Origin: a phage
Reading direction: 5' to 3' (one strand)
DNA: 64,000 nt
Assembly (NCBI GenBank): GCA_033286805.1
Contig: GCA_033286805.1_4727.1
Notes under the pieces: generated by a model
What the model was told of the DNA's origin: nothing
The model's database searches: none
What the model saw: the letters and a program-made list of their open reading frames with translations, nothing else
Made by a program: the position numbers and the translations under genes
In this document: piece by piece, positions 9,400 through 62,850 of the stretch
Numbering within the stretch: position 1 is the first letter of the stretch
Layout of the letters: each line of letters begins with the position of its first letter

Positions 9400-11958
9400 T
9401 TACTGTTCGTCGCGTTCCAACAGATACTCGGAAGCGGTAATACCGTTTACCGTACGTACTGCTTTCAGACGAGTATCATCACTCAGAATCACGGTAACAG
9501 ATTGCAGACCTTTTACTTTGGTTTCGAAGGTCTTGAACACCTGATCCAGCATACGAGCAATGCTTGGGTTGGTTGCAGCCGATGCGTGGGTGTAACCGCT
9601 TTGGTTCAGCTTCAGAATCTTGGCGTTGGTCGGTACGCGAACAACAACATGCGGACGCATCGCGAACACGCTATGATTAAACCAGTAAGCATCGTTGCTA
9701 TCTTCGTCGGTAACGATGTCTGGATTAACACGCATATCCTCGACAGCCGCATCCGCCAAACGCCGTTCGATTTCGTCAGCATCCAGAGAGCCATCTTTCT
9801 CCAGTTCTGCACGATACTCACTCATGGCAACCAGATGACGTTCACGATTCGCAGCGGATTTTTCGTGAGCTGCTTTCAGGTAGTCATGCATGTTGTACAG
9901 TTCAGCCATGGAAAGACGAATGTTCCACTGACCTTCGCCATCACGATTGCAGTAGAGGCACTTCAGCATGTTGACCCAGGTATAGTAGCAATTGGAGAAT
10001 TCATCTTCAATGAACTTCTGGTCCATTTTAAGATCGTGAATCAGCCAACCGGACAGTTCTCCGATATCATCAACGAAGCTAGAGATGGTGGTTTCAGAGA
10101 AGTTCTTCGGTACGATACGTTTGATCAGCTTGTTAACGTCTTTGGTCATGCTATCGTTCAGGAAATGCCAGATACGCAGAGGAATGACATCTCGATACTG
10201 TTGCATGATCTGACGATAAGCTTTGATATCGTCGCTACGACCTTTATCAATAGACAACGCATCCAGGAATTCATGGATTGCATCCAGCTCTTTGTCGGTA
10301 TAGGTTCCCAGATAGGAATTGACGGTGGCCAGGAATGCTAATGCGTCGTTTTGGTTGACGTCGGTGTTGGTCTGCTGAATGATCGCTACTGAAGCTTTGG
10401 TTTCAGCATCCTCAACGCTTGACGCTGCGATCGCATCGGTGACGGTAAACAGTTTCATTTCGCGCTGCTCACCGACAACGATTGGCTCACGCTGAACCGG
10501 CTTGTTAAGGCTAACACGAACAACTTCTGCTTGCGCGATACGATCCAGTTTTGCCATTTCCTGCTCTGCCATACGACGAGCGGTTGGATCTGATTCAAGT
10601 TCGATGTATTCCACTTCTTCCTCCGTGAGGGATGTAATGTCAACAATGGTTTCATGAAGAATTCCGTTTTCGTCGATACGTGCTCGACGAGCGAAGTGCC
10701 TGAAGTCATACAACGTCGGCCAACGACTATTAGGTGCAAAGTCTTTGGCTTTCAGACGCATCTGCATAAATTCTTCATGTTGAACAACACGACCGTAACG
10801 CTTAGCATCTTCGGTCGCATCAATTGGATTAACGGTCTTTGTTGCCGTAGCGGAACGAGCCGTACGAACCGGTTCCGGTTTCACCTGCGCAGGTTCAGGT
10901 TGAACGGGTTTCTGCTGCCCAGCCTTAACATGCCATTCTGGCTCTTCGTACTGTTCAGCAAATTGCTCGGCCGCTGCAAAGATATCGTTGATACCACCAA
11001 TATCTCCTTCAGGATTTGTCGAATATACTCGTGGTTGCGGTGCCTCGTAACGCGGCGCTGCGGTAGCAGGCGCGGCATCAACGATAGGATCATCATCACC
11101 AACATCATACAAACGGTTGAACGCACAATCCTTCGAATCAATGTACGATGGTGTTTGTGGTTGGACAACCGTAGGTCGAGGTTGTGTGCCGTATCCTGGT
11201 GTTGTTGGAGCCATACCACGCATAACTGCAGGACTAGGTTGGTATTGCGGTTGTGGGTAGGTTCCACCATACATGGCGTACGCAGGCTGTTGTGGTTGAC
11301 CATACCCGTTGCTAACCATCGCACTTGCTTGCGGCCCACGATAAGTCATCCCCATCTGCATCACCTGCTGCTTCAAACCACGTGACTTCTGAGCGATTTG
11401 CGCTAGGCTTCCGCTTTTATTCAGCTGCGTGTACTTGTTCGCGGCTTCCGGGTTAATGCGTGATAATTCAATCGCGCGATAATATTCCGGGTACTGATTA
11501 GGTTCAAAGAGCCACGTTACAAGATGATACAGCGCAACTGTGCTCACAGCAGCAGAGACGATCTGGTCGTCGGACGCGTTCTGTGGCATCGGGTTGATGT
11601 AAGAGAACACGTTCCAACAACAGTCTTCAACAAGCGATTCCATCATCATATCGTTATTGGTATAACGTGCGACGAACTCGGTTTGTATTTTGTCTTGCTG
11701 AGCGAAGTCTTTCAGGACATTAAAGATGGCTTGACGGATTTTGACGATCGTCGCTTCTTGGGTGATGAAGTTATAGTTCTGCTGATATGAGGGTTGTTGG
11801 TATTGTGGTGGTTGATAGGCGTTATTCGGATATGCACCGTACGGCGATTGCTGATACTGCTGCTGACGAACCTGTTCAGCCGCATAATTAATCGTGCTCG
11901 CATAAGGGTTTTCGCTATAGCCCATTTGCTGATACATGTTGTTACTGCCATTATACAT
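9400..11958 (-). CDS. hypothetical protein (852 aa) with Q/Y/P-rich low-complexity N-terminus and a second Q/P/Y-rich region
   Basis: ORF track; AAGGA RBS; N-terminal about 65 aa and aa 200 to 272 are Q/Y/P/N-rich. Confidence 0.7.
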   Translation of the reverse strand: MYNGSNNMYQQMGYSENPYASTINYAAEQVRQQQYQQSPYGAYPNNAYQPPQYQQPSYQQNYNFITQEATIVKIRQAIFNVLKDFAQQDKIQTEFVARYTNNDMMMESLVEDCCWNVFSYINPMPQNASDDQIVSAAVSTVALYHLVTWLFEPNQYPEYYRAIELSRINPEAANKYTQLNKSGSLAQIAQKSRGLKQQVMQMGMTYRGPQASAMVSNGYGQPQQPAYAMYGGTYPQPQYQPSPAVMRGMAPTTPGYGTQPRPTVVQPQTPSYIDSKDCAFNRLYDVGDDDPIVDAAPATAAPRYEAPQPRVYSTNPEGDIGGINDIFAAAEQFAEQYEEPEWHVKAGQQKPVQPEPAQVKPEPVRTARSATATKTVNPIDATEDAKRYGRVVQHEEFMQMRLKAKDFAPNSRWPTLYDFRHFARRARIDENGILHETIVDITSLTEEEVEYIELESDPTARRMAEQEMAKLDRIAQAEVVRVSLNKPVQREPIVVGEQREMKLFTVTDAIAASSVEDAETKASVAIIQQTNTDVNQNDALAFLATVNSYLGTYTDKELDAIHEFLDALSIDKGRSDDIKAYRQIMQQYRDVIPLRIWHFLNDSMTKDVNKLIKRIVPKNFSETTISSFVDDIGELSGWLIHDLKMDQKFIEDEFSNCYYTWVNMLKCLYCNRDGEGQWNIRLSMAELYNMHDYLKAAHEKSAANRERHLVAMSEYRAELEKDGSLDADEIERRLADAAVEDMRVNPDIVTDEDSNDAYWFNHSVFAMRPHVVVRVPTNAKILKLNQSGYTHASAATNPSIARMLDQVFKTFETKVKGLQSVTVILSDDTRLKAVRTVNGITASEYLLERDEQ

Positions 11959-11992: not shown

Positions 11993-13789
11993 TCAATCGA
12001 TTATGTCACGATCGTTAATTTCTACAATTTCTTCATCGAATCGACCGACGTCTTTCTTCAAGCCTGCATTGGTTGCTGCAACGTCATTTGCAATTTGTGG
12101 GGTAATGATTAACCGACCACGTTCGTCGATAGGTGCGTACATACTGAACTTTTGACGTCCGGTTGGTTCGGAGTGTGGAAGATTCAGATAGCTTGCACAG
12201 AACGGGATGGAACCACTAACCAAACGACTCTCGTCAGCCAATGCAGCACCGCCTGCGTTTTGGCTCTGGAGAACAACATGCGTGCTCACTTTGAACAGCA
12301 TGCAATCACCCGGTGACTGAATCGATGTTGCCACTTTCTCACGTTTATCACGATTGCTCTGGATATTGAGAATCGCTTCCGTTGCAACTTGATTTCGCAA
12401 CGCCTTCTGCACATCGCGATTGGTCATCTCTTTACGGTTGTTCTGTCGTTTGCCACGTTCTGTGGTTTTAAGATGGAACCCCAGTTTAAAGATGCTTTTA
12501 CGCACATCCTCCATGACATATTCCAACACCATCAATTCCTTACCGAACATCGTCGTGGTGTCAACACGACTCATTTCGATAGTAACATTGTCAATCAGAT
12601 ACGCCATAAATTCGTAGAAGTCGTCGCAAGGAATATTTTCCTGTTTGAACTTCTTCTGTTGAATTTCGTCAACGTAAAGATCGAGACTGTCGATGTGGTG
12701 GTTTACATCACGCAACAAACGCGCATCCGCATTGTTGTTATTAAAGATAATCAAACCGAGTAATGTACGCCAATGGTCTGGCGCATTTGCGAACTCCTCA
12801 ACCGGATAGTCTTCCGGAAAACGATCGTAATAACGGTCGATGAGATATAGGAACGCACCGACAAGGCCAAGAACAATACGTTCCGTGCCTCCACGTCTTA
12901 CAGCAATTTGAATATCAGGATGTTTGTAACGTACAGCGCTAGCGCTACGGCTTTTACCGCTTTTGCTGATACTAAAGCCTTTAGGAATAACCCCCATGGT
13001 GCGATAGATTACCCATTGGTCACGCGGAAAATCACGTTCAGCAAGGTTCCGTCCGGTTACGGCTTCGACACCTGCAAAACGTCGGAAACACTCACCCACC
13101 CCGTACTTCGCAAAGAGATAGTGACCCAGTGTGGTTACGCTGGTGTGGTTGATGTTGTCACCGTTCACTTTACTTTGTTTGGTAAGATGATAGATTTGCG
13201 ACCAGGGTAATGACAGGTAATGACGATAATCGATACCGGTCGGTGTATCATTGCTCAGGAACTGATACGGTGTACGTTTAACCGTGATTTTATCACGCGG
13301 AAGCATGATGAACGCCATGTCTTTCGTGTAACTGATTACGGGGTCAGCGAGTACCGCACTGAGAATGAAGTTCGCACCACGTAGACGCATTTTACCACCC
13401 TGACCTACCGCGGGTAATAGGAGAGGATGTCGGATAATGCAGTAGTCCTTTCCGGGTTCACGACGGTCGCCTGATTCCATCGCGCCGTACCAGCGGAATT
13501 CCAGCATCACCATAAACACATCGGAAGGCGCAAGGTCGAAGGTCAGCTTACCGCTATCCTTCCCTTTGGTTTTCTTTCCTCCGCTTAAGTAGTGGAACTG
13601 TTCGCGGGCCATACAGCGACGCAGGCCATGATACACCAGATCCTTAGGTAAACTATCTTTGCTGTTCCGCCAAAGACGATCAACATAGGACTCAACATCT
13701 TGCATCTTATCGACGACGATGTTGCGTGCTATCTTCTCGTTCATCTTCGGTGCAAGCTCAGCGACAGCTTTGCAGAATCTAGGATCCAT
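11993..13789 (-). CDS. hypothetical protein (598 aa)
   Basis: ORF track start 13792 is GTG; adjacent ATG at 13789 has AAAGGAG RBS at 6 nt spacing. Confidence 0.65.
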   Translation of the reverse strand: MDPRFCKAVAELAPKMNEKIARNIVVDKMQDVESYVDRLWRNSKDSLPKDLVYHGLRRCMAREQFHYLSGGKKTKGKDSGKLTFDLAPSDVFMVMLEFRWYGAMESGDRREPGKDYCIIRHPLLLPAVGQGGKMRLRGANFILSAVLADPVISYTKDMAFIMLPRDKITVKRTPYQFLSNDTPTGIDYRHYLSLPWSQIYHLTKQSKVNGDNINHTSVTTLGHYLFAKYGVGECFRRFAGVEAVTGRNLAERDFPRDQWVIYRTMGVIPKGFSISKSGKSRSASAVRYKHPDIQIAVRRGGTERIVLGLVGAFLYLIDRYYDRFPEDYPVEEFANAPDHWRTLLGLIIFNNNNADARLLRDVNHHIDSLDLYVDEIQQKKFKQENIPCDDFYEFMAYLIDNVTIEMSRVDTTTMFGKELMVLEYVMEDVRKSIFKLGFHLKTTERGKRQNNRKEMTNRDVQKALRNQVATEAILNIQSNRDKREKVATSIQSPGDCMLFKVSTHVVLQSQNAGGAALADESRLVSGSIPFCASYLNLPHSEPTGRQKFSMYAPIDERGRLIITPQIANDVAATNAGLKKDVGRFDEEIVEINDRDIID

Positions 13790-13828
13790 CACACACTCCT
13801 TTCAGAAAGTTGCTTAAGCAGATTAAAG

Positions 13829-21987: not shown

Positions 21988-21993
21988 AATATA

Positions 21994-22626
21994 TCACCAA
22001 TGATCGAAGGAACCAGGAGTGTTACGAACGATCTCAACTTGGAAGGTTATTGGTACTGATGGCAATGAAACATATTCGCGTTGCGATAGCAGGACGTTGT
22101 CTTCTCGCTCATCGATGCGAGTAGAACCCGTCAGAAATTGGAACATAGCGACTTGAAGCTCATCGGTGAAACGGAGGTACTCACCGATGTGTGGTGTTGC
22201 ATCATATCGAATAAGTACGTTGCCAAACCGTCGTGCGATATTTGGAGTATCTGTGAACGAAACAGGGAAATCCAAAGTCATTCCCATCGTTTCACCTGGC
22301 TTCATTTTCCGAATCGACGCAATTGGCGCGTCGAAGATATTCCATTCTTCTTTCATCGTGTCTGGAAACACACCGCGATACAAGATGGTCTTTTGATGAC
22401 GATGAACGGGTTGTAAACGGTCAACCAATATTTTCAAAGGTTTAAGTTCTTCAGCCAATTCATAATCTGCTTGGATGTTCCACTTTGCCGCAAGTTCCAT
22501 TAGGTTGGGATACGCGCTATATTTATTGACGATAGCCCAGTTAACATTACGCAAATCGATAGGAAGGAATTTGATAATTTCCTTGTTGAATATCCATTGG
22601 TTTAATTTCTTAATCTTCGAAAGCAT
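21994..22626 (-). CDS. hypothetical protein (about 210 aa)
   Basis: ORF track 21994..22815 would overlap the upstream gene by 170 nt; internal ATG at 22626 lies 16 nt after the upstream stop; start uncertain. Confidence 0.5.
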   Translation of the reverse strand: MLSKIKKLNQWIFNKEIIKFLPIDLRNVNWAIVNKYSAYPNLMELAAKWNIQADYELAEELKPLKILVDRLQPVHRHQKTILYRGVFPDTMKEEWNIFDAPIASIRKMKPGETMGMTLDFPVSFTDTPNIARRFGNVLIRYDATPHIGEYLRFTDELQVAMFQFLTGSTRIDEREDNVLLSQREYVSLPSVPITFQVEIVRNTPGSFDHW

Positions 22627-22642
22627 GATGTACTCACTACAG

Positions 22643-24010
22643 CTAAACGGTTGGACGAACGGTGTTGTCTTTTTCTGGTGCAAGCCATAACGTGACCGTA
22701 CCATGACATGTCCACTGTGGCTCACGTACAGAAGAACCTGCCATCGTAACAGCACAATCGGTACGCATGATAACCCCGTATGCTTCGCAGAGATTGTTAT
22801 CCTGCATCCACACAACTTTAGCAGGCATGCCGGGATACAACAAATCCATGTTTGCGTATTCCCACACCAACTGCATTGTTCTACCGCGTAATCCAGCAGT
22901 ATTGCTTAATTCACGCCATCGGTTATCGGTTACGCGTCCCATCCCTTTCGCCACCTTCACGTTATCGCTACGTTCTTCAGTTACGTACTCGCTAACGTTT
23001 ACGGTACGACTGATTATCGTATCACCCCCTTTTGATAATGTCATTCCCTGACTCATCTGACTTGCCGAAACAAAACGCCCGCCCGCATTACCTAACAACG
23101 AAGCCGCGTTATTGATGTCGCTTACCGACGCCCCTCTCGTACAGGCAATTTCCACGTATTTGTCACGATTGATCCAGGTCTTGTCCATGCCCGGAAACAT
23201 ATCGGCAGGATAGTTGTAAAAGATAGCCGTGCGCCGACCGTCAGAGAAACGGGTTTCGTCATAGAGAGGATAAATATACAGATACGGAGATTGGTAATAA
23301 CAACCGACATCCGCTGAATAAATACCGACCTGGTTCTGGATTTTGTCTACGAGATCCATTGCGTTGGTACCGTGCGGAAGAATAAGCAACTTGAACAGGT
23401 TGTCGTTATTCGGTGCAACAATATCCACACCCTGCATTTTGAATCCGGTGTCGGCTTCAACCGCAGAAAGTATTTTGCTGAATTCGAGCCGTAACACATC
23501 CAGAACTTTCGACCCGGTATAGTTTTCACCGGTTTCTGATTGCATGAAGCTTTCAAGAACAGGATCGAACAGTTGAAATTGAAGATCGACCATTTGCTCG
23601 TAGTCTTTCTTCGAAGAATCGGTTGCGGTACGTTCGTCGGTAGCAGACATACGACTGTCTACGGTTGTTAAACAAACCGCTCGGTAGACGTAAGCTTGTG
23701 CGGCATCGTCTACGGTTTGGCGTTGTCCGCGCATCAGGCTGTACGCCTGCACGATGATGCGCATTTTAAGTTGTTGTTGGTATGGTAGAATGTATTTTCC
23801 GTAACTGCCCGGTGGGAACTTTACAGAAATATAAAGTTCATCCCCTGCGTTACGTTCATAGTCTCGATACGTGTGGACTTGAGTCACTAAAGGAACAGAC
23901 ACCGTCATTGACGGCGTGATTAATTCCGCGGTGACTTTATACGCAACAGCAACTGCTTCCTGCGCAAATGTACCGATATACCGTCCTAACGGCGTCTGTT
24001 TGTAATCCAT
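22643..24010 (-). CDS. hypothetical virion-module protein (455 aa)
   Basis: ORF track; part of a tightly packed or overlapping minus-strand operon 21994..27859. Confidence 0.65.
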   Translation of the reverse strand: MDYKQTPLGRYIGTFAQEAVAVAYKVTAELITPSMTVSVPLVTQVHTYRDYERNAGDELYISVKFPPGSYGKYILPYQQQLKMRIIVQAYSLMRGQRQTVDDAAQAYVYRAVCLTTVDSRMSATDERTATDSSKKDYEQMVDLQFQLFDPVLESFMQSETGENYTGSKVLDVLRLEFSKILSAVEADTGFKMQGVDIVAPNNDNLFKLLILPHGTNAMDLVDKIQNQVGIYSADVGCYYQSPYLYIYPLYDETRFSDGRRTAIFYNYPADMFPGMDKTWINRDKYVEIACTRGASVSDINNAASLLGNAGGRFVSASQMSQGMTLSKGGDTIISRTVNVSEYVTEERSDNVKVAKGMGRVTDNRWRELSNTAGLRGRTMQLVWEYANMDLLYPGMPAKVVWMQDNNLCEAYGVIMRTDCAVTMAGSSVREPQWTCHGTVTLWLAPEKDNTVRPTV

Positions 24011-44871: not shown

Positions 44872-47800
44872 TTATCTTACGTTACTGCTATTCTGCTGTT
44901 CGCTGAACCAACCGTACACCTTGAGATCGGTACCATATCTCAGTGCGATATACGCATTCAGCGCAGCACAGAACAAAGACGCGAATGCCCATATCAGCGA
45001 AGGATCAACATCTTCCGTTACCACTGGGAGAGTATTATCCGGTTCCCATGATGGAGAACTGTCCATGAACGTCGTGTACCATTCCCGCCGTTGTTCTTCA
45101 GTGGTAAAGTCGCTATGGGGTTCCAATGCTTCTTTTGCCAGACGTCGATATTCGAACATATGCGTTGCTAAAGCCGATGAGTTACCAGATTCGCCTTCAT
45201 AGTTCGGATCCACCGCATAACAGAGTTCTGTGGAATCTAACAAAGCGACCGCCTGTGTGATGCTGTCGGCAGTGCCTGCACCATAGAGCTCGATAGACCG
45301 CGAGAGCTTCTCACAGAACGCATTTAACGCGGCAGGATTGGACACCTGAAGGTCAAGGCCTAATGTCCACGGATAGTTACTGAATACACCCGTAAACCGC
45401 GGCATAACACCCAACAGATGTTGTCCGATTACAGCACGGTTATAAACAGCCCGGTTATAGACTTGAAACGCAGCCTCCAGGGCTTGGTTATAATGACGAC
45501 GAAGTTCATCACGCGTGTTGCGGAACCTGTTTGCCGCGAGACTTGTGGCTGCAACGCTACAAACATCGTAATTGGTGGACGAGAGCACAACCTCGTTAAG
45601 ATCGAACGATTCCTGTTTCAATGTTCCGCTAACAGCTGCCGCTTCGCTGTTCGCTTTATCGACAACTGTACTCAAAGCGTTGATGTAACGTTTAGCTCGG
45701 ACCTCCAACCATTGTGCGATGCCGAGAATATCCACCGCAGCTTTAGCAAGATCGCGTGCATTCACGATTTCGTTCTTCAACGCCCCTAAACCTTTATTTT
45801 CAGGCGATGAGGCTTGTTGACGAATCATGCTGTTCAACATGGTAAGCAGATTATCCAACTCATGTCCGCTGACCTTGTTACGCGCATCGGTAATCGGCCC
45901 TTGCAGGAATTTACGGCAACCATCGTTGTATCGAATCAGTTTATCCACATCGATAGATTCGTTCGTAGATTCCTTGAACTGATCCTTCAATTCTTCACGG
46001 TAGTCGTGGATTTCACTTGCGAGATTATCGATAGTGATACCGTCATGTCCAAGAAGAACTTTATTGAAGTTACCTTTCTCGAATGCCAGAGCAAGACCTT
46101 CACGAATCTTAGCGAGTTTATCCTGATCGAGTTCACGACCGTTCGATAGCTCTTTCACTTCCGAGCTGATTAATGCCGAAACGTTACCCAGATTGTCGGT
46201 AACTCCTTTGAACGCTCCCGACCAAATCGTTCCTACTTCAGCATATTTCGCAATGGTCTGAATACCGACGGTGTGTAGCGACGCTAAACGTTTCTTCGTG
46301 CCTTCGGTAAGCAGAGCGTCTTTAGCTCGCGTAAGCTGACTGTTATTAGCTTCCGCCTGCTGAATCGCTGCTTTCGCACTTCCATTACGCCAGCTCTTAA
46401 CCAGCCAATCAACCAAACGTTTTAGGATATTGACGGTGTATTCCATTGTCCGCCGTAACGTTTCCCACGCGCTTTCTGCGGTATAGATGCCGTACCCTTC
46501 CATCTTCAACGCTTTCAAGCTTGTTTGACGTGCCAACCATTCTACCGTTGCAGAGCAAACGTTTACTAATGCTTCCAGGTAGTTGTAATAGACGTCTGTT
46601 GCAGTTGTTTCGTTGAACTTTGAATGCAGATAGAACTGATCGTAAAGTTCGTCGTCATCGCCGAAGGCATCATAGTTCCACAGTTCTGTATCACAACCTG
46701 TACCGCAGAAGACGTCAGCTGTCGTAAACTCTTTAAGCGCTTTAGCTGCGTCATTTGTCAGGAATTTACCTGTTTCAACTACATCGTCAACATTAAGCTT
46801 GGGGAGTTCGTCGGTGACTGGCTCTTCCAACATCAGCATATTGAAGAATGTGCTGTACTTGTATCCGAGCCATTTTGGATAACTGCTTTCAGGGATCGTA
46901 GACAGCGGCTTGATTTTCTTGGCTTCAGCCAATGTGTCTTTTGCGACCTGATATTGGTTTTCCCCAGCCTTGACGCGACGTAATGCTTTTTCTTCCAACT
47001 GCTTAAGCTTGGCATGGCGTGCTTGTGCTGGAGCTTCAACAAGTTTTTGTACCGACCGCATTGCAGAAATCGCTTCTTTTAATACGATCATCGGCATACG
47101 AACTTTACCGTCGTCGAAACTAAGAGCGCGAGCGACACGTTTACTTACGACCGGCTTATCATGGATATTTCGTTCCACCCACGATTTGTTTGCGTAAGTT
47201 TGAGCGATCTGCTGTTGGATATTTTCAAGGTATTTCCAGCTGCTGGATGCTTTATTATCCAAAAGCGGATTCGGTCCCTTCTTATCGAAAAGTTTCAGAA
47301 TCGGACCAAAGAAACCTTCCTGTACGAGTTCGATACGCGTGTATCCGTCAGCCGCTTCGATTTCTTCTTGGGTTTTGTCCCAGAGCTGTTCACTACGGAC
47401 AGCAGTAGCTGTTTCAGATACCGACATAACAAGCTCGGCAACAACTTCAGCGCAGGTCAGTACGGTACGCACGCATTGCAGTAGCATACGCTGGTAAACG
47501 ATACGGGCGTTTTGTAAACGTGCGATAACCGCTAAATAACCGATATTGTCAAGACGTTCGTCGGCTTGAGCAGAGTCAACACGTTCTATCAGTTGTTTAA
47601 CCAGCGCGGCTGTTTCCGGATAATCGTTCACGACGTCACGCATAATTCGTGATGCGAAAACCGCGGTACCTAAAACAGTGAGGAGTGTTTTACTATCCCA
47701 TTCTTTTGGTGTCGCTACCGATTCAGTAGGGATGAGATTTCCCGCCTGGTCGAAGTACGGCATAAGGACATTGATATCAGTAGACGGAACAGCAGTAATT

Positions 47801-48477
47801 GCGTTATACTCTTCATCCGCACCATCGTTGCCAGACGGCTGTAATGCAAGTGCTTGTTCAAGGATTTTGCGGTCAGCGGCATAAAGCGCCGACAGAGCTT
47901 GCGTTGCCGCAACCAAATCAACGATCGGCGACCAGAGCTGTGCGAGCTTACCTTCGTATTTCCGTACAGCGATAGCAAGGTCTTCTTTTACGTCTGGATG
48001 ATTGATTAAACCACCCAATGTTTCATGGATGGCAGAAAAACGTTCGGAATGTGCTTGTGTCAACGCGGTAAAATCGTCAACGTACGACGCATTTTCTTCA
48101 AGGCGTGTAAGTTCCTGCTCCAGGAGATCTTTTACTTGCGTAGCAGATGCGTTTCTCAACTGTTCACCGATAATCGCGATGGCTTTATCGACAACGCGAC
48201 AAGCTTCATTGAAGCCGGTTGTTGAAGGTAACTCGGTCCATAATGCCAGCGGCTTACCTTCCATTGCGTCAGGAAGGGAATATGACAACATTGCTAGTTG
48301 TTGACGTGATACCTGTTTGTCACGATGTAATGTTTCTTTCAACGCCAGAAGCTCATCAAGACCCACACTGCTAGGGATCGTGGGATGTGATACAGCGTTG
48401 ATGTTTTCTGCTAATGACTCAAGAACCAATAAACCATTTTCAGCGGAAGATAACCCTGCTTTAAGGTATTTGTTCAT
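44872..48477 (-). CDS. very large hypothetical protein (1201 aa), alanine/leucine-rich and helical; virion internal protein-like
   Basis: ORF track; GGAG RBS; composition similar to the 932-aa and 1128-aa proteins. Confidence 0.65.
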   Translation of the reverse strand: MNKYLKAGLSSAENGLLVLESLAENINAVSHPTIPSSVGLDELLALKETLHRDKQVSRQQLAMLSYSLPDAMEGKPLALWTELPSTTGFNEACRVVDKAIAIIGEQLRNASATQVKDLLEQELTRLEENASYVDDFTALTQAHSERFSAIHETLGGLINHPDVKEDLAIAVRKYEGKLAQLWSPIVDLVAATQALSALYAADRKILEQALALQPSGNDGADEEYNAITAVPSTDINVLMPYFDQAGNLIPTESVATPKEWDSKTLLTVLGTAVFASRIMRDVVNDYPETAALVKQLIERVDSAQADERLDNIGYLAVIARLQNARIVYQRMLLQCVRTVLTCAEVVAELVMSVSETATAVRSEQLWDKTQEEIEAADGYTRIELVQEGFFGPILKLFDKKGPNPLLDNKASSSWKYLENIQQQIAQTYANKSWVERNIHDKPVVSKRVARALSFDDGKVRMPMIVLKEAISAMRSVQKLVEAPAQARHAKLKQLEEKALRRVKAGENQYQVAKDTLAEAKKIKPLSTIPESSYPKWLGYKYSTFFNMLMLEEPVTDELPKLNVDDVVETGKFLTNDAAKALKEFTTADVFCGTGCDTELWNYDAFGDDDELYDQFYLHSKFNETTATDVYYNYLEALVNVCSATVEWLARQTSLKALKMEGYGIYTAESAWETLRRTMEYTVNILKRLVDWLVKSWRNGSAKAAIQQAEANNSQLTRAKDALLTEGTKKRLASLHTVGIQTIAKYAEVGTIWSGAFKGVTDNLGNVSALISSEVKELSNGRELDQDKLAKIREGLALAFEKGNFNKVLLGHDGITIDNLASEIHDYREELKDQFKESTNESIDVDKLIRYNDGCRKFLQGPITDARNKVSGHELDNLLTMLNSMIRQQASSPENKGLGALKNEIVNARDLAKAAVDILGIAQWLEVRAKRYINALSTVVDKANSEAAAVSGTLKQESFDLNEVVLSSTNYDVCSVAATSLAANRFRNTRDELRRHYNQALEAAFQVYNRAVYNRAVIGQHLLGVMPRFTGVFSNYPWTLGLDLQVSNPAALNAFCEKLSRSIELYGAGTADSITQAVALLDSTELCYAVDPNYEGESGNSSALATHMFEYRRLAKEALEPHSDFTTEEQRREWYTTFMDSSPSWEPDNTLPVVTEDVDPSLIWAFASLFCAALNAYIALRYGTDLKVYGWFSEQQNSSNVR

Positions 48478-53358: not shown

Positions 53359-55110
53359 ATGAGCGAACAAGAACGAAAACCTAAGAAGAAACTGCTCGGT
53401 ATTCAATGTCGACACATCAGCTATAACGAAGCGAACGATGGCAGCAAGAACGACCTCATGATCGCAAAAGAGATCATGTTCTTCGATGATAATACGCAAG
53501 CGACGAATCTTCGCTTCTTCGAGAATTACAAACGTCCGTTTTGGGTGACGGTAGAGAGTAAACGTAAGAACAAATATAAAAAGGAAAGCGAGAAGCTCTC
53601 GCATGTGCGTCGCTATGATGTCCGCCAAAGTGAACTGGTTGAAAAGATCAGTTCGGTGCTTTATAAAAGACGTGCTGATGACAACACCCGTCTACAGCAG
53701 CTTGCACGGAGTCCATACCTCTATGGCACGGACGTTAGCGCCAGCTGTTATTTAAAAACCCAGTACAACACAAAATGGCCGGAATACGTCGATAAATTAC
53801 CCGCTTCCATTGCCTGTTTCGATATCGAAACCGACGTTGTCCACGGGCACGGTAAGATCGTCTGTATGTCTATTACAATGGGATACAATGCGATACTTTG
53901 CTATACCAAGGACTTCGTTGGTCATATTCCGAATGCGATTGAGAAAACCCATGAGAAGATTCGATATTACCTGGCCGAACGTCTGAATACCAAAGAAGAT
54001 CCTCATGCGTTCGAAAAATATCATTACGATGTGCGAATCGTAGAAAGTCCGGCGCAAGCAGTCATCCAGTGCATGCAGAAGGTTCACGAATGGCAGCCGG
54101 ATTATCTCCTTGGCTGGAATATCGCGTTCGATATTCCGCGCATGCTCCAGGCACTGAACGAGGAAGGGTATCGTCCCGAGGATGTTTTCTCCGATCCTCG
54201 TGTACCACCTAAATATCGTATTGCTCGCTGGGTACCACCGAAGACAGACAAGGTATCTGCTTCAGGTCGTAAAACCAACCTTACCCTTGAGCAGACCTGG
54301 CCGATGTTTTATACGATGGCCACATACCAGGTTATGGATGCGATGTGCGGTTATAAGTTCGTTCGTTTAGGAAGACCGGATGAAGGACGCTATTCACTCG
54401 ATGCGGTGTTAGAGCGAAATAAATGCCATACGAAATTAAAAGCGATTCCTGGTACAGAGGGGTTCACGGAGCTTGCGTGGCACGAAGAGATGCAAACGAA
54501 CCATCAAATCGACTACGGCGTATATAACCTTTGGGATAACCAGGGTATCGAGGCGTTGGACCAGAAAACAAAAGACTATTCGATGACCATCCCTATTCGT
54601 TTGGCGGCGTCGGATTTGAAAGATTTCAGTTCTAACCCTAAACGTATCTGTGACAAACTTTTCTTCGTTTATCTTAACCGTGGGGAAGTCATGGGATGCA
54701 CTGCCGACGACATGACCCAGGAAGAAGATAAGTGGGTTATCTCACGAACCGGACATATCGTCACATTACCGTGCGATCTCATGGCGGACAACGGCATTCA
54801 TCTCTTCTGGGATATGCCGAACCTGAGAAGTTATATCCGTCTATTCGTTGCAGACCTCGACATTAGCAGTTCATACCCAAACGGGCAGATCCTGTTGAAT
54901 TTATCCAGAGCATGTGTTTTTCGTGAGCTCTCGCGCATTGAAGGCGTCTCTGACTATCAATTCAGGAAGTTAGGTATCAACTTTATTACCGGAGGTAAAA
55001 CGAACGCTGTAGACTTCTGTAGAATCGTTTATAAAGCACCATCGATGTTCGAACTCTTAGAACATTTCGATGCAACGCGTCCAAAAGGGGAAGCGCGGAC
55101 CATCGAATGA
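53359..55110 (+). CDS. family-B DNA polymerase, N-terminal fragment (3'-5' exonuclease domain plus palm motif A) of a split polymerase
   Basis: Exo I FDIETD (aa 154-159), Exo II GWNIAFDIP (aa 252-260), Exo III YNLWD (aa 389-393), motif A DISSSYPNGQILLNLS (aa 501-516); gene ends about 80 aa after motif A with no motif B or C. Confidence 0.6.
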   Translation: MSEQERKPKKKLLGIQCRHISYNEANDGSKNDLMIAKEIMFFDDNTQATNLRFFENYKRPFWVTVESKRKNKYKKESEKLSHVRRYDVRQSELVEKISSVLYKRRADDNTRLQQLARSPYLYGTDVSASCYLKTQYNTKWPEYVDKLPASIACFDIETDVVHGHGKIVCMSITMGYNAILCYTKDFVGHIPNAIEKTHEKIRYYLAERLNTKEDPHAFEKYHYDVRIVESPAQAVIQCMQKVHEWQPDYLLGWNIAFDIPRMLQALNEEGYRPEDVFSDPRVPPKYRIARWVPPKTDKVSASGRKTNLTLEQTWPMFYTMATYQVMDAMCGYKFVRLGRPDEGRYSLDAVLERNKCHTKLKAIPGTEGFTELAWHEEMQTNHQIDYGVYNLWDNQGIEALDQKTKDYSMTIPIRLAASDLKDFSSNPKRICDKLFFVYLNRGEVMGCTADDMTQEEDKWVISRTGHIVTLPCDLMADNGIHLFWDMPNLRSYIRLFVADLDISSSYPNGQILLNLSRACVFRELSRIEGVSDYQFRKLGINFITGGKTNAVDFCRIVYKAPSMFELLEHFDATRPKGEARTIE

Positions 55111-55196: not shown

Positions 55197-55208
55197 TTTT
55201 ATGTGTTT

Positions 55209-55682
55209 TTAATTATTGTTGGTGGGGTTATCGTCCGGTTTATATTCAATGCCGTAGGCGACGTAACGGTCTGTTGTATGGACGACAAGCGAGATAGGGA
55301 AATCATAATGCATAGTTTTGTCTCGAACGAGCTGAGTAAAGAGATCCATATAACGTATTAAGTCTTCACTGGTGTAATCAGAAGGGAAGAAGACATCGAT
55401 GGTTATTGAATCTTCATAGAGGCGTATGACCAACTTATCCAGAAGGTCGGCATATTGGTTAGCCGGGGTGACGTCCAGCTGACAGATGTCACGATCTCCT
55501 TCGTCTCGCGATACCCACATCGTGGTATCCTGTAATGAGGTTTCAAGGATCTCGAAAACACATTTTGCTGTAAGTCTTAGTTTATTTGTTACGTCATGGT
55601 TAGGTGAATAATGGTCACGGATGTTTTTCACTGCGTCTTTGATAGAGAAAGTCATTGTTGCTGTTCCTGTTATAGTCAACAT
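55209..55682 (-). CDS. small hypothetical protein (157 aa), member of a small paralog family
   Basis: ORF track; C-terminal motif ...DFPISL...YGIEYKPDDN shared with the 152-aa and 164-aa genes. Confidence 0.55.
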   Translation of the reverse strand: MLTITGTATMTFSIKDAVKNIRDHYSPNHDVTNKLRLTAKCVFEILETSLQDTTMWVSRDEGDRDICQLDVTPANQYADLLDKLVIRLYEDSITIDVFFPSDYTSEDLIRYMDLFTQLVRDKTMHYDFPISLVVHTTDRYVAYGIEYKPDDNPTNNN

Positions 55683-55685
55683 ATA

Positions 55686-55716
55686 GCCCTTCCCTAGCCG
55701 TCAAGGCCGGGGAAGG
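55686..55716 (-). terminator. GC-rich hairpin (CCTTCCC...GGGAAGG)
   Basis: inverted repeat between the small genes; followed on the plus strand by GGTATGTTT. Confidence 0.45.
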
Positions 55717-55732
55717 GTATGTTTACGTGTAA

Positions 55733-56128
55733 TTACTTTTTGGCGTCCGTTGGTGATTCAGTATGTTTCTCGCTGCTGGTGTACCAGAGTAGGTATGTCG
55801 GGAAAAGATTAACCTCTAAGCTAAACGGGATATTATATTTTTCTTCCATTTTGCAGAGATGTTCTTTAAGTAAATCCCTTGCTTCTTTGTTACGGCGAGC
55901 GGAGTGCCAATGTAGTTCTTCGTTCTCCTTTACCAGTACTTCTACAATGATACGCTGCTCGTGAACCTCGGTTTTCACAATAGCAAGTAAATCGTTACTA
56001 TCGAAACGGGTAAAACGAATGTACGAACCAGGCGTTTTTTCTTGTTTAACGATATCGATCATAGTAGAAATGTGTGGGTGATCGATGTTGTCGTTAACTG
56101 CTTTAACGATGGAATCTACAACGCTCAT
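55733..56128 (-). CDS. small hypothetical protein (131 aa)
   Basis: ORF track; ATG start. Confidence 0.5.
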   Translation of the reverse strand: MSVVDSIVKAVNDNIDHPHISTMIDIVKQEKTPGSYIRFTRFDSNDLLAIVKTEVHEQRIIVEVLVKENEELHWHSARRNKEARDLLKEHLCKMEEKYNIPFSLEVNLFPTYLLWYTSSEKHTESPTDAKK

Positions 56129-56168
56129 TTTTTTTTATCCTTAATGTTATCGGTTTAGAAATAATATT

Positions 56169-56933
56169 TTATTTGCTGTTATCTTTATCGACAGTTGTTA
56201 CCCATGATGGGAAAGCCGGATGGAAACAGAGCGTGAACGTAACCTTCGTATCGTATTTAAACGCACGGTCCACTAGCCGAGTATCGAACGTTTCCCTTAG
56301 ACCGTCATCATCGTTATCGATGACAGCCATATCCCTTAATATCCCAAGCACGTTAACGCCATCTGGTGTCTGGGTTACAACAAGTCGTCGTAATGGTCCG
56401 CATGTATAATCACGTACGTATCCTTTCTTCGGGTCCGATACTCTATTTAACGCATCGTGATTTTCGATGAATTCATCGGCAATACGAGTGATGTGTTCCC
56501 TTGCTTTATCTGGATCGTATTCTGCTAATAGTTCCTTCGTGTCGAATGTTATCGCGTTATTAGCATTCGATTCAGAAGGGAAACATAAAACTAAACGAAC
56601 AGGGTATTCGTATTGATCTGTTCTTGTTTCGAAAGCATTAGCTAAACACGGCTTGTATGCCTTTGCGTCGACATTGTCCAAACACGGATGCAATAATGCA
56701 TGAATAACGGCACCATCATCAGTTAAACCGAATTCCATAAATTGTGTTTCATCGGTGTCTGTTACGGTTTTCTGAAGGTACGCTTTACCGTTAACAATAT
56801 CGGTATCCCACATATCGTCGTTTAACGATTCTTCAAACTTATCGAATATATGGTTTACGAGATTGACGAGTTCATCAATACGGCACTGTTGGTTGAATTC
56901 GATTAATCGTTGAACTTTATCTTTGATAGACAT
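56169..56933 (-). CDS. hypothetical protein (254 aa), possibly a duplicated form of the small paralog fold
   Basis: ORF track; contains ...YEYPVRLVLCFP... and ...VTFTLCFHP... resembling the DFPI(S/T)L motif twice. Confidence 0.5.
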   Translation of the reverse strand: MSIKDKVQRLIEFNQQCRIDELVNLVNHIFDKFEESLNDDMWDTDIVNGKAYLQKTVTDTDETQFMEFGLTDDGAVIHALLHPCLDNVDAKAYKPCLANAFETRTDQYEYPVRLVLCFPSESNANNAITFDTKELLAEYDPDKAREHITRIADEFIENHDALNRVSDPKKGYVRDYTCGPLRRLVVTQTPDGVNVLGILRDMAVIDNDDDGLRETFDTRLVDRAFKYDTKVTFTLCFHPAFPSWVTTVDKDNSK

Positions 56934-56935
56934 GA

Positions 56936-57394
56936 TTACCCATTAGCTCCTTCTTCGTCTGGAGAGTATTCCATCGTGTAGAATTCATAACCGTCGGAAA
57001 ACTTGAGTGTTAATGTAATAGGGAAATCGCACGGCATAGCTGATTTCGTAAATGCGTTATTAGCAACATCAGCCAACCGACGTATAGCATCAGTCCCGCT
57101 GACGCTGAATGGTAGTTGTATGTTGATAAGGATGCGGTGCTTGTAAACATAGAAAACAACGGTGCTGTCAAGATAAACGCTATGGAACGGTATTGTTGGG
57201 ATGCGTTCCACGATGGTAAAATACGTCCCGTCATTATCGCTATGTCCCACCGACCAAATATCGGATTTGCGTAGATTTTGTTTGAGAGATTCGATACTTC
57301 GAGTGACGGTATCAGCAACAGGTGCGACGTAAGCGTCTTTATGCGAGTCGAAAAGTTCGTTGACGTTAGATTCGAATGAATACATTGTTGCCAT
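56936..57394 (-). CDS. small hypothetical protein (152 aa), small paralog family
   Basis: ORF track; C-terminal ...CDFPITLTLKFSDGYEFYTMEYSPDEE. Confidence 0.55.
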   Translation of the reverse strand: MATMYSFESNVNELFDSHKDAYVAPVADTVTRSIESLKQNLRKSDIWSVGHSDNDGTYFTIVERIPTIPFHSVYLDSTVVFYVYKHRILINIQLPFSVSGTDAIRRLADVANNAFTKSAMPCDFPITLTLKFSDGYEFYTMEYSPDEEGANG

Positions 57395-57460: not shown

Positions 57461-57955
57461 TTACTCTTCTGTGTTTTCATTGTCTGGATCGTAGTGGAAT
57501 TCGAACAGCCCTGAACCGTCGTGCCCGTTGATTGTTAGTATAACGGGCATATCGAATCCTCGGACACGCGAATGAAAACACTGTGCTAATTTTAGTTTGG
57601 CATATGCCGCTATTTCATTGATGGCAATACACGACTCACCTGTTATACTCAGTATAACGTCGATACTAATGATGTTATCATGCAACGCAAAACGCCAGCG
57701 ATCGATACGATTATTATCTTTATCGGTTGTCTCGTTTACGAGATAGACTTTATCATCAACCGACAAAGCGGGACTCCAGCAACGTTCGTTTATTAAATTC
57801 GCCTGGAGTTTTAGTATCGTCTGATCGATAATATCCCAACACGTAACCAGCGTGGTGTCAGGCACTGAGTAGAGAAGGGCGTGCACTTTATCCTTTATTT
57901 TAAGTGCTTCCGCAGGACGTCCGCAAATACCATGCATTTCAACTTTCTTATTCAT
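57461..57955 (-). CDS. small hypothetical protein (about 164 aa), small paralog family
   Basis: ORF track start 57961 is GTG; ATG at 57955; C-terminal ...FDMPVILTINGHDGSGLFEFHYDPDNEN. Confidence 0.5.
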   Translation of the reverse strand: MNKKVEMHGICGRPAEALKIKDKVHALLYSVPDTTLVTCWDIIDQTILKLQANLINERCWSPALSVDDKVYLVNETTDKDNNRIDRWRFALHDNIISIDVILSITGESCIAINEIAAYAKLKLAQCFHSRVRGFDMPVILTINGHDGSGLFEFHYDPDNENTEE

Positions 57956-57998
57956 ATTCACTTCTTTCTTAATCTAAATGTTAGTTGGGGTGGGATGC

Positions 57999-59914: not shown

Positions 59915-60541
59915 TTATGCAAAGCGACGCATGTAACCTGCCAGATAGTTACGCGTATCGAAGTAGGCAATTTCAGGAATTGCGATATTAAGGTCGATAG
60001 CACGGATTTCAACTTGGCGACGGCTTTCATCATAGATCGCATCCATCAGACGCAGTACTGTCAGGAAAGCCATGCGGGTATGGTAGTCCAGCGGCATGTT
60101 ATCGATACCGCGATACAGATAACGGTTTGCGTTAAATGCCCCTTCGCTGTTATCTTTCCAGATCTTCAGAATATCAGCAAAGGCGGTGCGGAAAACCTCA
60201 GGATTATCCACATCCAGTAACGCACGGAAAGCAGACATTAAAGACCGCTGATGACGGATCAACGACTGCGGCGTTTGCGGCATGGTCGGACCCATTTCTT
60301 CCGCATATTTCTGGAACGGAGCAACCAGGGTTGCGGCACGAGAAGCCACGATAGAAATAACAGGCGATTCTTTCACCACCGGTTTCGCAGGCTTTTCTTC
60401 AACAACGGTTTCCTTCTTCTCAACAGCGACCGTTTCCGGCTGTGCTACAACATCACTAACCGGAGCATCGGCAACGGTGGTTTCTACCGCAGTAATCTCC
60501 TCGTCCATTTTTGCAGAACGTTGGTCTTTATTCTTGCTCAT
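59915..60541 (-). CDS. hypothetical protein (208 aa)
   Basis: ORF track; ATG start; operonic with the upstream gene. Confidence 0.55.
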   Translation of the reverse strand: MSKNKDQRSAKMDEEITAVETTVADAPVSDVVAQPETVAVEKKETVVEEKPAKPVVKESPVISIVASRAATLVAPFQKYAEEMGPTMPQTPQSLIRHQRSLMSAFRALLDVDNPEVFRTAFADILKIWKDNSEGAFNANRYLYRGIDNMPLDYHTRMAFLTVLRLMDAIYDESRRQVEIRAIDLNIAIPEIAYFDTRNYLAGYMRRFA

Positions 60542-60566: not shown

Positions 60567-61868
60567 TTAACTAATATAAAGTTCAGGATCGTAAGGCGCT
60601 AACGATACACTGGCGTTATGCATTGCTTTCATCATAGTGTTCATGAAAACGTTGTTTACACCGGTGATCTCTGCCCCGATCGCGTCTGGGGTTGGAGCCA
60701 TCGCGTTACCGCAACAGGTAGCACAGTATTCCAATGGGCCTGCTTTACAACGTTGAGGATCACGTAACTTGATGGTTTGTCCTTCCAAGGAAGCAAGTAA
60801 TTCAGCATCAATAAGTTTAAGCGCCGCGCCGTCGATCATGTAACGACCGACAAGCAGCTTATCTTTGACATGATCGCGGTTTACCGTGAACAGAATATGT
60901 TCGTGGGTACCACAGTCGTCCATCGTGATTTTAAGGTTCTGTGTCGCACGCTGTGATTCTTTCGCCGTCTGTCCCGCTAAAGCGGTCAGTGCGCCACGTG
61001 AGAACGAACCTGCACGTGCACTGTTGTTGTACTCCGCCCAATGGTCGACACGCATCCCTTCAGCCAGGCTGTGTGTGATAACGTTACGTTTACCAGGGTC
61101 AACGAAGTCGGCTTCAACCCCCATCATGATGTGCGTTTTCTTTCGAGTATTACCGAAACTCTTGCCAGGGTTAATATAAAACCCTTCCGATTCATCACCC
61201 TTAAAGGATTCCTTATCCATTTTGGTTAGCGTGGCTTCGAGTTTGATCAGTTCTTCAGGTGTGAACTTACCTTCCTCTTGTAAGCGTGCTAACTCTTTAT
61301 CACGATAGGCAATAATATCATCATCGACCGTTAACGCTTTATCGCTCATCGATGGGACAATTAAACGGTTGATAGCGGTTAACGCACTGATATTGTTGGT
61401 GAATTTCTTCACTTCGCTTGCGTACAGCGGGCCAATAGGACGTTCGTTAGGATCGGGTATCCCCTCTTCGGGATCGTCCGCTACGCGTGGCGCAATCAGT
61501 GATTCCAGTGTACCGCTGGTCAACCGCCCTGCCTGATATTCAATCTGAATACCAAAAGCATCATAAAGGACGTACATATTGAACAACGCTTCACCGAAGG
61601 TTGTGGTGGTCGTATTCTTAACCGACGGTAGATCACCAGGTGCAAGCTCCAATGGCTCCCAGAAACTCAACAGGGGTTTTGTTGGCTCGGTTTCCCATTG
61701 GTGTTCTTCACCGTCGATGGTAACCGTAACGACGTTACCTTGACGACGTAATTTAGGCTGATACTTCTCAGCGCCGCCTTCCGTAAAAGCAAATGCGTCG
61801 TTAATCCATTCAAGATAACGGTAGTGCCCTTCACGCATCGCGTAAAGGAAATATTCACGAGGTGTCAT
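60567..61868 (-). CDS. possible multisubunit RNA polymerase beta-prime-like fragment (433 aa)
   Basis: AAGGAG RBS; segment ...ARAGSFSRGALTALAGQTAKESQRATQNLKITMDDCGTHEH... loosely resembles beta-prime region G (AAQSIGEPGTQLTMRTFH); Cys cluster CKAGPLEYCATCCGN near the C-terminus; weak motif-level evidence only. Confidence 0.35.
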   Translation of the reverse strand: MTPREYFLYAMREGHYRYLEWINDAFAFTEGGAEKYQPKLRRQGNVVTVTIDGEEHQWETEPTKPLLSFWEPLELAPGDLPSVKNTTTTTFGEALFNMYVLYDAFGIQIEYQAGRLTSGTLESLIAPRVADDPEEGIPDPNERPIGPLYASEVKKFTNNISALTAINRLIVPSMSDKALTVDDDIIAYRDKELARLQEEGKFTPEELIKLEATLTKMDKESFKGDESEGFYINPGKSFGNTRKKTHIMMGVEADFVDPGKRNVITHSLAEGMRVDHWAEYNNSARAGSFSRGALTALAGQTAKESQRATQNLKITMDDCGTHEHILFTVNRDHVKDKLLVGRYMIDGAALKLIDAELLASLEGQTIKLRDPQRCKAGPLEYCATCCGNAMAPTPDAIGAEITGVNNVFMNTMMKAMHNASVSLAPYDPELYIS

Positions 61869-61881
61869 GTAACAACTCCTT

Positions 61882-62754
61882 TTAAACCCGGGTCAGGTCA
61901 CCGTGACATGAAACGAACTCTGATAGCGCTCGGGTTGCTTCTTTGGATTCTTCAGCCATCGGGAAGTTTGCGGTAATAAGTTCTCGTAAGACAGGGACGA
62001 GTTCATTATCTTCGAGATCGGAAGCTAAGGCGAATGCAATCAGTTCTTGGGTGTATGCATACGGTTGCTGACGTAATGCAGTAAGCTGATCCCGACACTG
62101 CGACATTAGCAGGTCCAGTGGAACCGCTATCGTACCCCCTTCATCAATATACTGGCTGAACACCGGTGGGAACGCATCGCTGATGACACGAATACGTCGA
62201 CGAATATGATCCGGAATCTGGACGTTTTCTTCGTCAGCGACGTTTTCGCTATCTTTCTCCAGCTTCTTGGTCAGTACCTGTTGGATGCGTGGGAGCAAGC
62301 TTGAATGCACGAAACCGATTAATGGGGTTACGTTAACAGCATCAACGCCGTAAATATGACGCACGCATTCCGCCAGCGCTTCAGCTGTGGTGTAGTCTTC
62401 ATCTTCAACGATAGCGAGTAGAAAAGCGGTATCGTCGTGTGTTTCCAGGTCTAATAACGTAGACGCTAGTGCATGAAGATATTTCAGGCTATCCAGAGTT
62501 AGCTGTCCTTCGTTAATTCGGATCCCGAAGGCAAGCAATTGTTGTTTATAAAGTTCGATACATCCGTTTGTTAAAATGATATCTAATTCGTTTAAATCGT
62601 ATTGTTCCCCAGCACCTGATAACATCGTACTGCAGAACGTTTCCAGTTGTTCACATTTAAAATCTTGGTATAAACGATGCATGCAGTGCTGTAACAGCGT
62701 ACGCCTTGTTTCAGGGATCTTACCTTCTAACAAAGCCAAGACGGAATCAATCAT
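61882..62754 (-). CDS. hypothetical protein (about 290 aa)
   Basis: ORF track start 62760 is GTG; ATG at 62754 with GGAG RBS. Confidence 0.55.
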   Translation of the reverse strand: MIDSVLALLEGKIPETRRTLLQHCMHRLYQDFKCEQLETFCSTMLSGAGEQYDLNELDIILTNGCIELYKQQLLAFGIRINEGQLTLDSLKYLHALASTLLDLETHDDTAFLLAIVEDEDYTTAEALAECVRHIYGVDAVNVTPLIGFVHSSLLPRIQQVLTKKLEKDSENVADEENVQIPDHIRRRIRVISDAFPPVFSQYIDEGGTIAVPLDLLMSQCRDQLTALRQQPYAYTQELIAFALASDLEDNELVPVLRELITANFPMAEESKEATRALSEFVSCHGDLTRV

Positions 62755-62850
62755 ATCCACTCCGATGCGGTAAATGTCTACTAGCTCTCATAATCTATTG
62801 AAGAAACTACCAGCTTACGCCAACTTAGATTAATCAGGAGTAACCATCCC

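Follow-up and report, generated by a model that had tools for sequence, protein, structure and literature searches.

The open reading frame (ORF) at 60567..61868 on the minus strand of the window, the whole 64-kb stretch of phage DNA analyzed here, is almost certainly the gene for beta'M, one of the subunits of the virion RNA polymerase (vRNAP) in a Goslar-like, nucleus-forming jumbo phage. The homology, domain content, and orthology on which this assignment rests were computed in this work; the location in the virion and the membership of the complex are taken from the literature. The part that individual residues play in catalysis, judged from cellular RNA polymerases, and the precise C-terminal end of the protein are inferred. 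A first-pass annotation, made from the DNA letters alone, had seen a possible beta'-like fragment of a split multisubunit RNA polymerase of the kind encoded by phiKZ-like phages, and profile, fold, orthology, and literature evidence all agree with that proposal. The beta'M gene is already known, both as a family and in Goslar, and the added value of our analysis lies only in a residue-level map, namely the bridge helix, what we predict to be the true set of Zn2 ligands, and the probable end of the protein within the trigger loop.

Orthologs, virion polymerase subunits, and gene neighborhood

The ORF listing of the 64-kb window gave a 433-aa ORF with an ATG start and a Shine-Dalgarno sequence (AAAGGAG) 7 nt 5' of that codon. 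A 4.5-kb stretch around the gene is 96.3% identical at the DNA level to Escherichia phage vB_EcoM_Goslar, and window positions 1-64000 align to Goslar 27822-91489. The window phage is a close relative of Goslar and a Goslar-type nucleus-forming jumbo phage (Chimalliviridae). At the protein level, identity to Goslar gp078 (YP_009820763, annotated as “RNA polymerase beta subunit”) is 99.5%, with only two of the 433 positions differing (H322Q and V334I) and nothing functional among them. In PHROGs, residues 1-432 matched the 433-position profile of phrog_2962 (“RNA polymerase beta subunit”) with E = 4e-106, and phiKZ gp80, a vRNAP member, was matched over residues 1-419 (31% identity, E = 9e-50), so that the homology to the beta'M family runs from end to end in both cases.

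Word-seeded protein searches gave only 9, then 14 relatives. The tblastn search picked up homologs in 311 phage records, almost all from jumbo phages (200-320 kb), and at least 80% of the query was covered in 275 of these records; the hosts include Pseudomonas, Erwinia, Salmonella, Vibrio, Serratia, Aeromonas, Klebsiella, Ralstonia, Bacillus, and Staphylococcus. The named orthologs are Goslar gp078, SPN3US gp42, OBP gp090 (annotated as “virion-associated RNA polymerase beta′ subunit”), and phiKZ gp80 (annotated as a structural head protein). Over the full length, the SPN3US, OBP, and phiKZ proteins are ~30%, ~31%, and 31% identical to the window protein, respectively. All four orthologs are similar to it in length (431-449 aa) and have in common with it the invariant Cys, Met, and His positions as well as an upstream neighbor of the gp79/gp41/gp091 family.

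The core of the vRNAP is made of five polypeptides, which are the N-, M-, and C-parts of beta' and the N- and C-parts of beta (Sokolova et al. 2020, PMC7598289). The first cut in beta' follows the double-psi barrel and coincides with the cyanobacterial split, not with the archaeal one, the archaeal A'/A'' cut being located elsewhere than the jumbo-phage beta' split (PMC7598289). In SPN3US, the subunits are gp42 (beta'M), gp240 (beta'N), gp244 (beta'C), gp241 (betaN), and gp218 (betaC) (Thomas et al. 2016, PMC5105663), and an amber mutant of gp241 loses gp42 and all the other vRNAP subunits from its virions (PMC5105663). The phiKZ enzyme consists of GP178, GP149, GP180, GP80, and GP176 (PMC7618050), and Gp80 co-immunoprecipitates with Gp180 (PMC10612078). 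In Goslar, gp78, gp196, gp205, gp207, and gp210 form the vRNAP and all were detected in purified virions by LC-MS/MS (bioRxiv 10.64898/2026.04.21.720040). The beta'M family has been found by mass spectrometry in the virions of Goslar, SPN3US, and phiKZ according to the literature. In the Goslar set, gp205 is beta'N, gp78 beta'M, gp210 beta'C, gp207 betaN, and gp196 betaC, and the four partner genes lie at 204-230 kb and match in PHROG families and sizes. The partner subunits lie outside the 64-kb window, and we assume from the 96% identity to Goslar that the window phage has them.

The beta'M gene sits in the middle of three tightly spaced, co-oriented genes, with gaps of 13 nt upstream and 25 nt downstream:

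61882..62760, minus strand: upstream co-oriented gene, homolog of phiKZ gp79 (BLASTP, phrog_5038, synteny)
60567..61868, minus strand: complete gene, 433 aa, almost certainly vRNAP beta'M (ORF, phrog_2962, orthology, literature assignment)
59915..60541, minus strand: downstream co-oriented gene, homolog of Goslar gp077 (ORF, phrog_18957, Goslar annotation)

The product of the downstream gene matched phrog_18957 (E = 7e-19), and this gene is probably co-transcribed with the beta'M gene. The upstream product, ~290 aa long, matched phiKZ gp79, a head protein (BLASTP E = 3e-7), and phrog_5038 (E = 3e-25); its homologs are phiKZ gp79, SPN3US gp41, and OBP gp091. A gp79-family gene is found directly 5' of the beta'M gene in Goslar, phiKZ, SPN3US, and OBP, and because this synteny is so widely kept, it hints at a functional link between the gp79 family and the vRNAP, for example in packaging or assembly.

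Our search for terminators inside the three-gene block uncovered no convincing one. Sigma-70-type promoters around the beta'M gene numbered 5, no more than chance would give (6.7 ± 2.5 expected), in keeping with a phage that makes no use of the host RNA polymerase. A scan of the seven large ORFs of the 64-kb window detected no further RNA polymerase family. Goslar gp039, labeled “polymerase” (window 11993..13792), was considered as a paralog of the beta'C found in non-virion RNA polymerase (nvRNAP) and discarded, as it belongs to the phrog_2943 family and has no similarity to the 433-aa ORF.

Other parts of the window were also compared with Goslar. Goslar gp069, a NUMOD1/HNH homing endonuclease located just after the DNA polymerase piece gp068 (NC_048170 81183-82966), lies on a ~1.8-kb segment that is absent from the window phage, where the junction is at ~54852-54873; the two phages, 96% identical, thus differ by a presence/absence polymorphism affecting a mobile endonuclease. 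A 651-bp segment (21993-22643) is present in the window and not in Goslar. At 46508-48178, megablast matched nothing to the N-terminal ~270 aa of the 1201-aa ORF 44872..48477, and the length of Goslar gp064 is only 930 aa. The block of small genes at 55204-56949 is diverged or replaced relative to Goslar. Downstream of the RNA polymerase gene, three tandem genes of ~150-170 aa on the minus strand (55209..55682, 56936..57394, and 57461..57961) encode weak paralogs (BLASTP E 9e-9 to 6e-4) with a common acidic C-terminal tail (…Y-x-P-D-[DEN]…).

Homology to beta' and domain map

Pfam-A gave no match to the 433-aa ORF even at E ≤ 10, no RpoC domain being detected, and was equally blind to the Goslar partner subunits. 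With the single sequence, phmmer against the PDB aligned residues 263-329 to E. coli beta' 758-824 (E = 0.003). A 9-sequence family profile placed positions 179-396 on AR9 nvRNAP beta'C 141-365 (E = 4.9e-7) and positions 269-401 on Francisella beta' 753-904 (E = 3e-6). A profile check against RpoC, one of those suggested in the first-pass annotation, recovered the beta' similarity: a 14-sequence profile, from an alignment that takes in phiKZ, OBP, PBS1, and a Staphylococcus phage, matched residues 736-903 of E. coli RpoC by hmmsearch (E = 2e-10), and hhalign placed query residues 82-428 on E. coli beta' 600-950 with a probability of 93.5%. The RpoC target in these profile tests, for the beta'M and the beta'C families alike, was a single E. 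coli sequence.

Structure prediction, also suggested at the outset, led to the same result. The AF2 model was built on a 10-sequence alignment, shallow because the word-seeded searches gave few relatives, and was of moderate confidence (mean pLDDT 66, pTM 0.44), with the bridge and C-terminal helices below 50. When this model was compared with the PDB by Foldseek, the best 50 matches were all beta' chains (probability 1.00), aligned over 320-460 columns, and no unrelated fold was present among them. AR9 nvRNAP beta'C came first, with 437 aligned columns (E = 8e-8); the structural matches included beta' chains of cyanobacteria and plastids, and the identity to cellular beta' was 15-19%. These searches confirmed that the 433-aa protein is homologous to beta'.

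The AR9 protein (gp154; PDB 7S00/7S01/7UM0 chain D) is both the best structural and the best profile match, with a collinear bridge helix and Zn2 site. That the closest solved structure is an nvRNAP subunit, together with a partial match of residues 261-389 to phrog_3015 (a 653-position RNA polymerase family, E = 2e-11), could suggest that the ORF encodes a beta'C of the phiKZ gp74/AR9 gp154 type, part of the polymerase that transcribes middle and late genes in the phage nucleus. We regard this as very unlikely. The match to phrog_2962 is full-length and far stronger, the orthologous gp78, gp42, and gp80 belong to the vRNAP and are virion proteins, and the three-way split of beta' is specific to the vRNAP. 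An nvRNAP-type beta'C is also a single chain of ~600-650 aa that extends from beyond the double-psi barrel to region H. At 631 aa, AR9 beta'C continues through the whole trigger loop and region H, whereas the window protein has 433 aa, stops ~37 residues past the aligned stretch, and ends ~270 residues before the AR9 protein does (query 396 falls on residue 365 of 631). The remaining part of beta' in the window phage would be on a separate polypeptide, beta'C, as in Goslar gp210 and phiKZ gp176, and AR9 beta'C comes from a different enzyme, a late polymerase that is not packaged. A vRNAP beta'M is the reading that we retain. Its N-terminal boundary is close to that of AR9 beta'C (query 179 on AR9 residue 141), in agreement with the published cut after the double-psi barrel.

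The protein can be divided as follows:

61626..61868, minus strand: residues 1-81, phage-family N-terminal segment (alignments A1/A2, hhalign coverage starting at 82)
61131..61625, minus strand: residues 82-246, collinear with E. coli beta' ~600-735 (hhalign, weak here; family profile, AF2, Foldseek)
61050..61130, minus strand: residues 247-273, F-loop-like by comparison with E. coli, IMMGVEADFVDPGKRNVITHSLAEGMR (hmmsearch against RpoC 736-903, phmmer)
60939..61049, minus strand: residues 274-310, bridge helix, region F (alignment to E. coli beta' 758-824, AF2)
60714..60914, minus strand: residues 319-385, Zn2 module (invariant Cys, profile alignment)
60606..60689, minus strand: residues 394-421, predicted helix, collinear with E. 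coli ~911-940, the first trigger helix (hhalign, invariant columns, AF2)

Residues 1-81 lie outside every cellular beta' alignment, M1, W21, and F26 are invariant in the phage family, and AF2 gave a pLDDT of 80-85 for residues 1-20. This segment is either a phage-specific extension or a diverged counterpart of E. coli beta' ~520-600. Residues 82-246 are mostly helical and have the highest model confidence (AF2 pLDDT 80-90); the collinear E. coli region, ~600-735, lies between the catalytic double-psi barrel and the F-loop. In the AF2 model, residues 274-310 form one unbroken 37-residue helix, the bridge helix, in which N282, R285, S288, R291, T295, and G299 are invariant in the family.

The two peptides quoted in the first-pass annotation are both present in the protein, ARAGSF...CGTHEH at residues 284-324 (60897..61019) and CKAGPLEYCATCCGN at residues 374-388 (60705..60749). 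The first of them, most of which falls in the bridge helix, had been likened to the trigger-loop region G, a placement that did not hold, since ARAGSFSRGALTALAGQTAKESQRATQNLKITMDDCGTHEH aligns instead to E. coli beta' 758-824, a segment that is the F-loop/bridge helix (region F) and not the trigger loop (region G). The His of CGTHEH, seemingly an E. coli-like match, is a Gln in Goslar. Any likeness to region G would have to be at the extreme C-terminus, in residues ~394-421.

The second peptide had been put forward as a four-Cys cluster. The protein contains exactly five Cys (319, 374, 382, 385, and 386), of which C319 (in DDCG), C374, C382, and C385 do not vary in alignments A1/A2 or in the 14-sequence alignment; a small beta-rich insert lies between them. 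In the profile alignment, these four fall on the bacterial DCGT … P-x-x-C-x(6-8)-C-x-x-C-y-G and on AR9 beta'C. The four bacterial Cys aligned there (E. coli C814, C888, C895, and C898) are the Zn2 ligands of beta', and C319, C374, C382, and C385 are accordingly placed as the predicted Zn2 ligands of the phage protein. Three members of the cluster (C374, C382, and C385) are thereby kept as probable ligands; C386 is not conserved, the family having C, V, L, A, M, or S at this position, and the fourth ligand would be C319 of DDCGTHEH.

Compared with E. coli RpoC, the F-loop, bridge helix, and Zn2 site of the window protein are collinear with the ~600-950 region, and only the equivalent of that region is present; the clamp, the N-terminal zinc finger, the NADFDGD motif, and region H are all absent. 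No DFDGD-type catalytic motif was found anywhere in the 433-aa protein. The presence of the bridge helix and Zn2 Cys and the absence of the DFDGD motif and region H are the content of a beta'M-type subunit. In archaea, the bridge helix is in A', and it is past this helix that A'' begins, with the trigger loop and regions G/H. The window protein, which has a bridge helix and is devoid of region H, is therefore not like A'', against which the first-pass annotation had proposed to compare it.

The annotation of phiKZ gp80 as a “structural head protein,” the blindness of the Pfam models to the 433-aa protein, and an identity of only 15-19% to cellular beta' would also suit a degenerate beta' remnant, kept as a structural protein of the head or inner body with no catalytic role. 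This is less likely still. The predicted Zn ligands, the bridge-helix residues, and M413/H417 have stayed invariant though the family has diverged to 25-30% identity, the incorporation of beta'M into SPN3US virions depends on other RNA polymerase subunits, and phiKZ infection does not depend on the host RNA polymerase and needs an injected one. As for the idea that short motifs of an unrelated Cys-containing protein resemble beta' by chance, a caveat of the first-pass annotation itself that could draw on the single-sequence E-value to E. coli beta' of only 0.003, its probability is negligible and the reading is already refuted, as profile, profile-to-sequence, and fold searches converge on beta', collinear over 170-350 residues, and the top 50 structural matches hold no other fold.

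The C-terminal boundary and the trigger loop

The vRNAP beta'M assigned here probably ends within the counterpart of the E. coli trigger loop. In the full-length hhalign alignment, MKAMH (413-417) falls on E. coli MRTFH (932-936), so the possible first trigger helix of the window protein has Met and His equivalents of E. coli M932 and H936. M409, M413, and H417 are invariant in the family, with PBS1 reading LKAFH and the Staphylococcus-phage member MKSFH. H417 is found 32 residues after the CxxC, compared with 38 in E. coli, and the protein ends 16 residues past H417. AF2 predicted a helix at 394-421 with low pLDDT. Taken in isolation, a 46-column C-terminal sub-HMM retrieved nothing relevant from E. 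coli RpoC. When the C-terminal block was aligned globally to E. coli 899-955 by hhalign, the score was 1.02, which was reached or exceeded in 184 of 200 shuffles and in all 44 of the other RpoC windows. Because these isolated tests are not significant, it is from collinearity that we infer residues 394-421 to be the probable first trigger helix.

The other half of the trigger loop might be carried by the next subunit. The beta'C family (eight members, including Goslar gp210 and phiKZ gp176) starts with a conserved L-x-R-[ND]-x-x-x-[VIF], possibly the second trigger helix, which reads L-P-R-V-x-x-L-F in cellular enzymes. The resemblance of this family to region H is collinear only: aligned by hhalign to the C-terminus of E. 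coli beta', the eight members (Goslar gp210, phiKZ gp176, and six others) gave a probability of 0.1%, and phmmer of Goslar gp210 against the PDB returned no match. A weak similarity of beta'C to cellular beta' (E = 0.05) was reported from SPN3US, and the region map in the same study implies a split of the trigger loop (Thomas et al. 2016, PMC5105663).

Judging from these alignments, we lean slightly toward a second vRNAP beta' cut located at the trigger-loop tip, the site of SI3 (beta'In6) in E. coli, with a trigger loop assembled from two polypeptides. If this is true, the first trigger helix (M413, H417) would end beta'M and the second would be the extreme N-terminus of beta'C. Such a cut near the trigger-loop tip has no counterpart in cyanobacteria, whose beta' is naturally split (RpoC1/RpoC2), as is that of plastids. 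The literature searched contained no explicit statement or test of a trigger-loop split and no vRNAP structure, which appears unsolved.

Proposed role of beta'M in the virion RNA polymerase

In the proposed mechanism, beta'M would supply the stretch of beta' beyond the catalytic double-psi barrel, made up of the helical region, the F-loop, the bridge helix, and the Zn2 module, and would probably also give the first helix of the trigger loop. Its contribution to the enzyme would be the mobile elements of the active site, which drive translocation and nucleotide addition, and the catalytic Asp triad would be located on beta'N.

The annotated Goslar beta'N, gp205, ends in …YLAGLGGD-QGKANK… and has no DFDGD (NC_048170 204000-237307; the region concerned comprises loci ~7572-7760 and 9757-11265, minus strand). 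Past the HNH gene gp206 and an annotated group I intron, there is an unannotated frame, RFDGDTVSVNVLYS. Splicing of gp205 would give GGD|FDGD and with it a complete Asp triad. The intron appears to break gp205 at its catalytic motif, with exon 2 apparently left out of the RefSeq annotation. Directly after Goslar gp247 (NC_048170 165000-205000, locus 4270-5911), there is another group I intron, with an HNH endonuclease. Gp247, a 423-aa protein similar to RNA polymerase beta'N with a zinc ribbon and a weak match to Rpb1 domain 2, presumably belongs to the non-virion polymerase, and its C-terminus as annotated (…GYNADFSFFN) likewise stops within the catalytic motif.

The five-chain enzyme, lacking alpha and omega, would be assembled late in infection, packaged in the capsid, and injected with the DNA. 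According to the literature, at the level of the complex, the injected vRNAP would then be required for rifampicin-resistant early transcription and would transcribe the early genes without the host RNA polymerase. As the protein is a virion component, the beta'M gene itself would be expected to be expressed late, by the second, non-virion polymerase. The finding confirms a Goslar-type nucleus-forming jumbo phage as the source of the window and labels, almost certainly, one of its five vRNAP genes. The vRNAP is a minimal multisubunit RNA polymerase without alpha or omega, which is packaged in the capsid, passes through the tail, and is reassembled to start the infection.
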